A DNA stretch of 23,174 nt, from assembly GCA_029856435.1 (NCBI GenBank), contig JAHQXB010000032.1, forward strand, positions 1 through 23,174, in the 5' to 3' direction. The stretch comes from Candidatus Jordarchaeia archaeon. GTDB taxonomy: Archaea; Asgardarchaeota; Jordiarchaeia; Jordiarchaeales; Jordiarchaeaceae. The notes below the pieces were generated by a model. It ran no database searches and had not been told where the DNA came from. It worked only from the letters and a program-made list of their open reading frames with translations. Shown piece after piece: positions 2,351-4,234 of this stretch (positions within the stretch are counted from its first letter, which is position 1; each line of letters opens with the position of its first letter). The position numbers were made by a program, and so were the translations under genes.

Positions 2351-2377
2351 GGATGTGGCATGGTCTGTTTCGAGGTG

Positions 2378-3270
2378 ATGGTCTTGGTTAAGGGATGGGT
2401 CGCTGAGGTGTTCTCTTCCTACCAAATCCCCCAAAAGGAGGGGGAGGTAAAGGAGAAGGAGGTAGCGTCAGCGGCTCGTGTTATGGAAAGCGTCAGATAT
2501 AGGAGGAGTGGAAGCTATTCCTTCGTCGAATCGCTCGATTCGCGGGCTGCAACCTAGCTATGGGGGAGTTTGGAACTAGGGGCTGCAGGTGGTGCGACAT
2601 CTTATATAACATGCTAAGACGCGAATCACCTGGAGCTCAAAAACCAGACGCAACTCAGCTTAGAGTGGAAGAAAGCCCCGGGACTGGAAAATTCGCAGGG
2701 CAAGCAAATCCCGTAGATCCAGCAACTCTTTGCAGCTATGTGAGAAAACTGAAAACTGCGGATCTTCACTCGGTATCATTTACTGGTGGGGAGCCTTTAC
2801 TTCAAATGGATTTTCTGAGGGAAGTTTCAGAGAACCTTGTCTCAGAGGGTTATATTCTCTTTCTTGAGACTAATGGTTCTTTACCTAGGTGTGCTTCAAA
2901 GGTGGCTGAACTTTTTGAATACTGCTGCTGTGATATTAAAGATGAGTCGGCGGGGGCTGCTTCAGACTGGAGAGCTCTAGTGGAGAGAGAGTTGGAAACC
3001 ATACAGGTTTTAGTTGAGGCAAAGGCAAAGACCTTCGCCAAAGTTGTAGTTACATCCCAAACAAAATCAGAGAATATTGAATGGTATGCTAGGGAGCTTG
3101 CTAAGTTGGGATGCCCCCTATGTATTCAGATTGTATCTCCATATGGCGAAGTGGAGGAAAAACCCACAATAAAACAACTGTTCCAGTTCACGGAGGCCGC
3201 GGCGAAGTATCTCCATAAGAATGACATTTCAATATCAATTCAAGCCCATAAAGTGTTGGGAATACTCTGA
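2378..3270 (+). CDS. queE: 7-carboxy-7-deazaguanine synthase QueE (radical SAM), intron-split: join(2378..2425,2452..2500,2531..2598,2626..3270), 269 aa
   Basis: Spliced N-terminus reads MVLVKGWVAEVFSSYQ|GEGGSVSGSCYGKRQI|FARFAGCNLAMGEFGTRGCRWCD|SPGAQ, restoring the QueE motifs E-x-F-x-S-x-QGEG, F-x-RF-x-GCN and C-xx-CD. Downstream are VSFTGGEPLLQ, LETNG and SIQAHKVL. Exons total 810 nt = 270 codons. queD follows. Confidence 0.9.
2426..2451 (+). other. Putative BHB-type intron 1 of queE (26 nt, frameshifting)
   Basis: ATCCCCCAAAAGGAGGGGGAGGTAAA. Central helix UACC(2420-23)/GGUA(2446-49), bulges AA^A(2424-26) and AA^G(2450-52), intron stem UCCCCC/GGGGGA. Splicing gives CAA|GGA = Q|GEG. The outer exon-exon helix is weak. 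Confidence 0.85.
2501..2530 (+). other. Putative BHB-type intron 2 of queE (30 nt, creates an in-frame TAG if retained)
   Basis: AGGAGGAGTGGAAGCTATTCCTTCGTCGAA. Bulges AU^A(2499-2501) and AA^U(2529-31), central helix AGAU/GUCG (3 pairs plus an A.G mismatch), intron stem GGAGGAG/UUCCUUC, outer helix AGCG/CGCU. Splicing gives ATA T|TC GCT CGA = I-F-A-R. Confidence 0.78.
2599..2625 (+). other. Putative BHB-type intron 3 of queE (27 nt, in-frame, would add ILYNMLRRE)
   Basis: ATCTTATATAACATGCTAAGACGCGAA. Central helix UGCG(2593-96)/CGCG(2620-23), bulges AC^A(2597-99) and AA^U(2624-26), intron stem UCUUA/UAAGA, outer helix CAGGU(G)G/CACCUG. Splicing gives GAC|TCA = CD|S. Confidence 0.8.
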
Positions 3271-3769: not shown

Positions 3770-4234
3770 ATGGTCTACAAGCTTAAGGTGGAAAGAACTG
3801 ACCTAAACTTTTCTGCGGCTCATTTCCTAATACGCCACCCGAAATGTGAGCGTATACACGGCCATAACTATAAGGTGACTATTGAGATCGAGTCTGATAA
3901 ACTGAACAGTCAGCAAATGATAGTGGACTTTCTAGATGTAAGAAACGTAGCGAGGGATATTTGTCAGAAAATGGATCACTACATACTGATACCCACTAAA
4001 GAAAAAGAAGTGGAAATCAAGGAAATGGGAAAAGAAATAGAGGTTATAGCAAACGGGAGGAGGTACATCTTCCCCAAGGATGACGCATTACTTTTGCCTA
4101 TTGAAGCAACCACTGTGGAAAAAATATCCGAGTATATTTATAAACAGCTGAAAAAGTCACTCCTCAAAAACATGAAAATAAGGGTTTCAGTAGAGGAGGC
4201 TGAAGGGTCAATAGGCACCTACACAGAAGAATAG
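3770..4234 (+). CDS. queD: 6-carboxy-5,6,7,8-tetrahydropterin synthase (QueD/PTPS family)
   Basis: FSAAHF, CERIHGHNY, IVDF, MDHYILIP and TTVEKISEYI motifs; downstream of queE. Confidence 0.9.
   Translation: MVYKLKVERTDLNFSAAHFLIRHPKCERIHGHNYKVTIEIESDKLNSQQMIVDFLDVRNVARDICQKMDHYILIPTKEKEVEIKEMGKEIEVIANGRRYIFPKDDALLLPIEATTVEKISEYIYKQLKKSLLKNMKIRVSVEEAEGSIGTYTEE

Follow-up and report, generated by a model that had tools for sequence, protein, structure and literature searches.

In the literature that we searched, cbf5 of Crenarchaeota is the only archaeal protein gene with confirmed splicing of its pre-mRNA (PMC2738675). The crenarchaeal cbf5 intron, known from Desulfurococcales and Sulfolobales, is a short (16–44 bp) insert of the bulge-helix-bulge (BHB) type within coding sequence; its cleavage motif is often relaxed, it lies inside a conserved protein motif and therefore has to be removed, its hosts have a hetero-oligomeric EndA splicing endonuclease, and the interrupted gene encodes an RNA-modification enzyme (PMC2738675). 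Here we describe an insert, intron 1 of the radical-SAM gene queE, that appears to share these properties, in a 23,174-nucleotide (nt) stretch of DNA from Candidatus Jordarchaeia archaeon (contig JAHQXB010000032.1, positions 1 to 23,174; hereafter the window). It differs from the crenarchaeal cbf5 intron in the gene concerned, in belonging to the Asgard phylum, in being one of three introns within the first 250 nt, and in that we infer its splicing from the sequence. It is thus a predicted pre-mRNA BHB intron of the cbf5 type for which both the host gene and the phylum are new, and the first of the three in queE.

The second closely related group comprises the relaxed, HBh'-type introns of pre-tRNAs, which abound in Freyarchaeia and Atabeyarchaeia (PMC11291895; 10.64898/2026.10.13.758758); for the lineage studied here, introns are reported in 92–95% of tRNA genes (PMC11291895). 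The queE insert resembles these introns in its motif, with a 4-bp helix, an intron hairpin, a 5' bulge of 3 nt and a potential 3' bulge of 3 nt, and also in size range, presumed enzymes and lineage. Unlike a pre-tRNA intron, intron 1 is not surrounded by a tRNA body, and ARAGORN found no tRNA in the window. The exon half of its motif is built of codons (Ser-Tyr-Gln and Gly-Glu-Gly), and splicing must therefore compete with translation. Introns in Asgard protein-coding genes are mentioned neither in PMC11291895, nor in a 2026 census preprint (10.64898/2026.10.13.758758), nor in the other literature that we searched.

We propose, with a probability of about 0.88, that intron 1 is a tRNA-type intron that is taken out of the queE mRNA by EndA, the exons being joined by RtcB. 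In the pre-mRNA, exon UACC would pair with intron GGUA, a 6-bp intron hairpin would stack on one side of this helix, and weak exon-exon pairing would form on the other. A heterotetrameric (alpha-beta)2 endonuclease would bind this relaxed, HBh'-like motif and cut each strand two bases past the 3' end of the central helix (2425/2426 and 2451/2452), upon which RtcB would ligate the exons to give ..SSYQ↓GEGG.. (here and below an arrow marks a predicted cut or junction). Two downstream mini-introns would be excised likewise, and only afterwards could the 269-residue enzyme be made; the unspliced message would yield a short out-of-frame peptide ending at TAG 2555-2557.

A more distant parallel is the splicing of HAC1 and XBP1 mRNAs in eukaryotes, which are cleaved by Ire1 and joined by tRNA ligase or RtcB, the XBP1 intron being 26 nt long. 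As proposed for queE intron 1, a short, frame-changing mRNA intron is handled independently of the spliceosome by a stem-loop endonuclease and a tRNA ligase. Unlike in queE, the nuclease is Ire1 rather than EndA, the RNA motif is another one, and splicing is part of a regulated stress response, whereas nothing at queE points to regulation.

Conservation of the insert within the Q-G-E-G motif

The queE gene lies on the plus strand (window 2378-3270), and the Pfam model Radical_SAM covers 2560-3267 with a score over its cut-off. Its N-terminal coding part is split over two frames and a TAG: frame 2 reads ..KGWVAEVFSSYQ through CAA 2423-2425, and the homology resumes in frame 1 from 2452 with GEGGSVSGSCYGKRQI. 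Homologues that lack introns, taken from databases and from other classes of Asgard archaea, follow the pattern ..E[IV]FSS[FY]QGEGxxxxGSCxGKRQIF[IV]RFAGCN...C.WCD[ST]P.., with nothing between Q and G, and the six genomes examined from other Asgard families have homologues without intron 1. An earlier note on this DNA had described a 26-nt frameshifting insert inside the Q-G-E-G motif, a description borne out both by the sequence and by the contiguous Q-GEG of the intronless homologues; its statement that a retained insert keeps translation in frame 2 until TAG 2555-2557 agrees with the reading frame.

When the four exons are joined in silico (2378-2425, 2452-2500, 2531-2598 and 2626-3270), the resulting 810 nt encode 269 amino acids plus a stop codon. 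This product is 49–55% identical to the intronless homologues over their full length, and all three junctions align free of gaps. Joining 2425 to 2452 recreates ..SSYQGEGG..; the predicted RNA junction is ..UACCAA↓GGAGAAGG.. and the junction peptide ..VFSSYQGEGGSVSGSCYGK.

The class Jordarchaeia/Freyarchaeia (Asgard) is represented in our collection by 11 species genomes from two families. Each of them has one queE gene, single-copy in the genome studied here, and in all 11, among them the closed, curated chromosome CP147778.1 of the same genus (locus near 2.1258 Mb, minus strand), an insert is found at the same alignment columns. The inserts in the 11 genomes are 26, 25, 26, 24, 21, 20, 22, 26, 23, 22 and 22 nt long and thus fall into all three residue classes modulo 3; furthermore, some versions hold stop codons and one version is in frame. 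Given the varied length, the frame classes and the stops, intron 1 is not translatable and no single fixed frameshift fits it.

In the alignment, pairing of the central helix holds in every cell (100%). Five of the six pairs of the stem are altered on both sides among the relatives (UCCCCC/GGGGGA, UCCCU/AGGGA, CUUCC/GGAAG, CCUUA/UAAGG), and the covariation is higher than in any of 500 shuffles or any slid control. C2419 and C2422, two synonymous third codon positions inside the structure, are invariant in the 11 genomes despite a synonymous divergence (dS) of up to about 2 within the genus. Among the members of the genus, exon 4 has a ratio of nonsynonymous to synonymous divergence (dN/dS) of 0.08–0.22 at a dS of up to about 2, and in the relatives compared the exons are free of indels, frameshifts and stops, length variation being restricted to the three inserts. 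queE is a live gene under purifying selection.

Introns 2 and 3 fit the same ruler as intron 1: a helix of four positions and cuts two bases past the helix on each strand. The opening bases of intron 2 (AG) form, together with exon T2500, the stop TAG 2500-2502. Its boundaries agree with those in the sister family, which has CGAU/GUCG as the helix and regains ..TIFIRF.. at the junction. Among five relatives from the same genus, four have a TAG inside intron 3 and the fifth has an out-of-frame version of 30 nt. At the corresponding site of the sister family, after ..WCD, the stretch measures 12, 14, 14 and 13 nt in four genomes, with differing frames; it is longer in G009, and G007 reads through in frame. 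BHB boundaries could not be placed at the intron 3 site in the sister family.

How often such a motif arises by chance was assessed at two levels. A loose genome-wide BHB scan returned 51,454 matches, as compared to 51,170 in a mirror-image control, and the BHB motif alone therefore carries no statistical weight. At one given site and length, a BHB of intron 1 quality (a helix with four Watson-Crick pairs, a stem of at least 6 bp) has a frequency of 7.4e-6; for intron 1 it is protein homology that fixes the site, independently of the motif, and the two further queE inserts show this coincidence again. Filtering the frameshifting BHB matches of the whole genome for frame rescue gave no excess over a wrong-length control. 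The bulge signature A-N↓A / A-A↓N was matched 593 times versus 502 expected, and an open-reading-frame rescue filter performed only slightly better on these matches (19 of 593) than on control bulge sets (13 of 682). Matches to the signature were used solely to find candidates, each of which was then inspected singly.

Predicted cleavage motif and candidate splicing enzymes

The central helix of intron 1 consists of the pairs U2420-A2449, A2421-U2448, C2422-G2447 and C2423-G2446. The helix UACC/GGUA, the 6-bp stem and the bulges AAA and AAG that had been claimed earlier all match the sequence, although RNAfold lacks the open 3' bulge. Folding 2400-2470, as the earlier note had suggested, gave a minimum free energy (MFE) of -29.5 kcal/mol (z = -3.3), which none of 200 shuffles equalled; this fold recovered the central helix together with the 5' bulge and the stem, and the 3' bulge was absorbed by pairing of the exons in another register. 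A blind RNAalifold prediction from the 11 sequences contained the same central helix, AAA bulge and stem, again with the 3' bulge not open. On the intron side, helix h' has 6 bp; the outer helix h is reduced to C2419-G2453, beyond which stands a C.A mismatch, as expected from the prior description of a relaxed BHB with about one firm outer pair. Because the 3' bulge is absent from the MFE structure and the open-bulge fold is costlier (+3.2 kcal/mol), intron 1 is classified as a relaxed BHB: judged by the modelled folds, its motif is HBh'-like in the sense of PMC5829648 rather than a strict hBHBh'. Three pairs of cuts at intron 1 are equivalent in sequence (exon end ..CAA, intron end ..AAA).

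An endonuclease suited to such a motif had been predicted for this genome, and the genes present are in line with the prediction. Two EndA-family genes (PF01974) were found, both uninterrupted. The product of the first (L001:1178-1753, 192 amino acids) most resembles 3P1Z_B, the catalytic alpha subunit from Aeropyrum pernix (E 3e-45), and keeps the Tyr/His/Lys triad; its loop ..GIRKPKSPQF.. aligns to ..DVEKPRGADF.. of 3P1Z_B, with Lys44 of the Crenarchaea-specific loop (CSL/L1) conserved. The second (L002:1195-1785, 197 amino acids) is a beta-like paralogue with Thr at the position of the catalytic His. Consistent with this division, models of fused EndA proteins match the L002 product with their N-terminal, structural half and the L001 product with their C-terminal, catalytic half. 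An (alpha-beta)2 EndA with the L1 loop cuts relaxed motifs and is present in Asgard archaea (PMC5829648). The EndA pair of this genome has the (alpha-beta)2 pattern by its sequence features and is predicted to be of broad specificity. RtcB is encoded once in the genome.

Weighing the splicing reading against its alternatives

Several observations weigh against splicing of queE by EndA and RtcB as proposed. RNAfold pairs the polypyrimidine tract of exon 1 with the polypurine tract of exon 2 in another register, which absorbs the 3' bulge; the fold with both bulges open is less stable (-20.0 versus -23.2 kcal/mol), and neither the MFE nor the consensus fold has a clean 3-nt 3' bulge. The outer exon-exon helix amounts to one invariant pair, with no covariation seen in the 11-genome alignment. 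The sole rtcB gene is itself interrupted, making the supply of the ligase depend on the same process. A search with exon 4 for a spliced form among database proteins returned only truncated or misframed versions from the clade, and a degenerate scan of metagenome contigs for the spliced junction yielded two unrelated chance matches and no spliced junction; both outcomes are uninformative on splicing. Finally, the name QueE relies on best hits under the NCBIfam cut-offs: with exon 4, QueE models are among the matches and activase models score above them, and with the intronless orthologues QueE models rank on top, every score lying under the equivalog cut-off. Source annotations call the homologues 'QueE'.

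One alternative, which we regard as very unlikely, is that the RNA does lose the insert but that EndA and RtcB are not responsible, the work being done by another nuclease/ligase pair or through cuts at other bonds that give the same mature sequence. The three pairs of cuts lead to one product, so that positions shifted by 1–2 nt are sequence-equivalent, and the predicted folds show no canonical bulge at the 3' site. This explanation has to contend with the conserved 4-bp helix and the cuts two bases past it on both strands, which are the ruler of EndA, and with the fit of the same rule to five other inserts inspected. Moreover, inserts of 20–26 nt are far too small for a ribozyme, and the genes for both EndA subunits are present and uninterrupted, as is, though interrupted by a mini-intron, that for RtcB.

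We also consider it very unlikely that the ribosome instead bypasses the 26 nt by frameshifting or hopping, for which phage T4 gene 60 is a precedent, with the hairpin acting as a recoding signal in an uncut RNA. A stable hairpin does lie immediately 3' of the break, but no single rule fits lengths of 20–26 nt that occur in all frame classes among the relatives; some versions of the insert hold stops and one version is in frame. The take-off and landing codons do not match, with CAA or CAG ahead of the insert and AAA, GAA or AAG at its end. In addition, the constant 4-bp helix and 3-nt spacing suit the needs of EndA and not those of a ribosome, and the geometry is shared by the two other queE inserts and by inserts in cbf5, rtcB and gatE (see below).

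Very unlikely, too, is the view that queE is decaying into a pseudogene, or that the insert arose as an error of assembly or sequencing in a stretch rich in homopolymers, leaving the organism with no working QueE: although gene callers yield only truncated or misframed proteins in the clade and the insert has runs of C5, A4 and G5, an insert stands at the same site in 11 independent assemblies, including the closed and curated CP147778.1, its stem covaries, dN/dS is about 0.1, the exons are free of frameshifts and stops with length variation limited to the three inserts, and queE is single-copy with its pathway partners intact.

Gene model and similar inserts elsewhere in the genome

The features of the predicted queE gene and its surroundings are compiled in Table 1. 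A reading of the locus as a separate short open reading frame was rejected. Regarding the start codon, a Shine-Dalgarno-like GAGGTG stands immediately before ATG 2378 and 5–6 nt upstream of TTG 2384 (window 2372-2386), and in the sister family GAGGTGGT is found 6 nt upstream of a GTG. The real start may be 2384, which would leave exon 1 with only 14 codons. As to pathway context, queD lies 500 nt downstream of queE, and queC and two TGT-family genes are encoded elsewhere in the genome. Public protein models of queE in Freyarchaeia/Jordarchaeales are all N-terminally truncated or begun in the wrong frame, and one database entry of 264 amino acids opens with about 50 out-of-frame residues; annotation pipelines miss these predicted introns, which would explain the state of the queE entries.

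Table 1. Predicted features of the queE locus, with positions in the window
Feature	Position	Strand	Remarks
queE exon 1	2378..2425	+	Frame-2 open reading frame ..MVLVKGWVAEVFSSYQ; start codon uncertain (ATG 2378, TTG 2384 or ATG 2360); also based on upstream GAGGTG in relatives and N-terminus alignment
Intron 1, 26 nt	2426..2451	+	Missing from intronless homologues; length differs among relatives
queE exon 2	2452..2500	+	GEGGSVSGSCYGKRQI plus first base of Phe
Intron 2, 30 nt	2501..2530	+	Helix AGAU/GUCG with A.G mismatch; 18–23 nt in sister family
queE exon 3	2531..2598	+	..ARFAGCNLAMGEFGTRGCRWCD; bears Fe-S cysteines
Intron 3, 27 nt	2599..2625	+	Helix UGCG/CGCG; keeps the frame and has no stop in this genome
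queE exon 4	2626..3270	+	SPGAQ.. to stop TGA 3268-3270; radical-SAM core; Pfam Radical_SAM; dN/dS 0.08–0.22
queD (6-carboxytetrahydropterin synthase)	3770..4234	+	Pfam PTPS; TIGR03367 QueD best hit, 82.6 bits versus cut-off 89.25
C2419	2419..2419	+	5' partner of only invariant exon-exon pair, with G2453; unchanged in all 11 genomes although a synonymous third position (Ser codon)
Central helix 5' strand UACC	2420..2423	+	Exon (Tyr codon and first base of Gln); paired in 11/11 genomes
5' bulge AAA	2424..2426	+	Predicted cut 2425/2426; cutting after second bulge base restores Q↓G junction
Intron hairpin h'	2427..2445	+	UCCCCC 2427-2432, 7-nt loop AAAAGGA 2433-2439, GGGGGA 2440-2445; 5/6 pairs change on both sides in relatives
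Central helix 3' strand GGUA	2446..2449	+	Intron
3' bulge AAG	2450..2452	+	Predicted cut 2451/2452; not unpaired in MFE or alifold folds

Inserts of similar shape were found in further genes of this genome, all on the minus strand. In cbf5, a frameshifting insert of 31 nt (L096:2259-2289, equal to G000 C73 22783-22813) interrupts the catalytic Asp codon (GTL-D-PKVTGVLP); its central helix is CACU/AGUG and its bulges are AG↓A and AA↓A, and the cutting rule restores GTLD↓PKV. The crenarchaeal cbf5 intron occupies the same position, the catalytic Asp codon (PMC2738675). In gatE, a 30-nt insert (L128:2339-2368) separates matches to the Pfam profile GatB_N, positions 2-41 upstream and 47-276 downstream, so that the profile continues when the same cutting rule is applied. 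A BHB-shaped insert of 28 nt joins long open frames in hypD (L126:1384-1411), the downstream part beginning at profile position 29, and another of 28 nt lies in an EndoQ-like gene (L127:1011-1038) that has no Pfam match and whose motif was recognised by eye only.

The rtcB gene has an in-frame, BHB-shaped insert of 30 nt with a TGA (L104:1547-1576, equal to G000 C93), placed in the conserved motif LPD↓AHQGYGFPIGG, which the same cutting rule restores, and having the helix CCCG/CGGG. It was detected in all six genomes of the genus: in five the span is longer and holds an internal stop, and in G005 the match is broken. rtcB is uninterrupted in the four sister-family genomes with a match. The message for the ligase would thus itself need the ligase for splicing. 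Concerning tRNAs, ARAGORN identified only six tRNA genes in this 97.8%-complete, 3.5-Mb genome, two calls having absurd 'introns' of 664 and 2109 nt; so few calls are consistent with tRNA genes that are too interrupted for standard finders.

We rate it an evenly balanced proposition that protein genes of Jordarchaeia/Freyarchaeia (queE three times, cbf5, gatE, hypD and rtcB) have undergone a lineage-wide invasion by tRNA-type mini-introns, with mRNA splicing by EndA and RtcB as an obligatory, possibly self-regulating, layer of expression. Some 70 nt around intron 1 make up a small and clean substrate on which the tolerance of an Asgard EndA for relaxed motifs outside tRNA could be studied. If our reading is correct, the tRNA introns with which this lineage is known to be flooded have spread into mRNAs, and the ordering of splicing and translation becomes a question to ask of a cell that has no nucleus. 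On the invasion reading, splicing of mRNA would be obligatory in a relative of the eukaryotic ancestor, implying that there is a means to keep ribosomes off unspliced messages.
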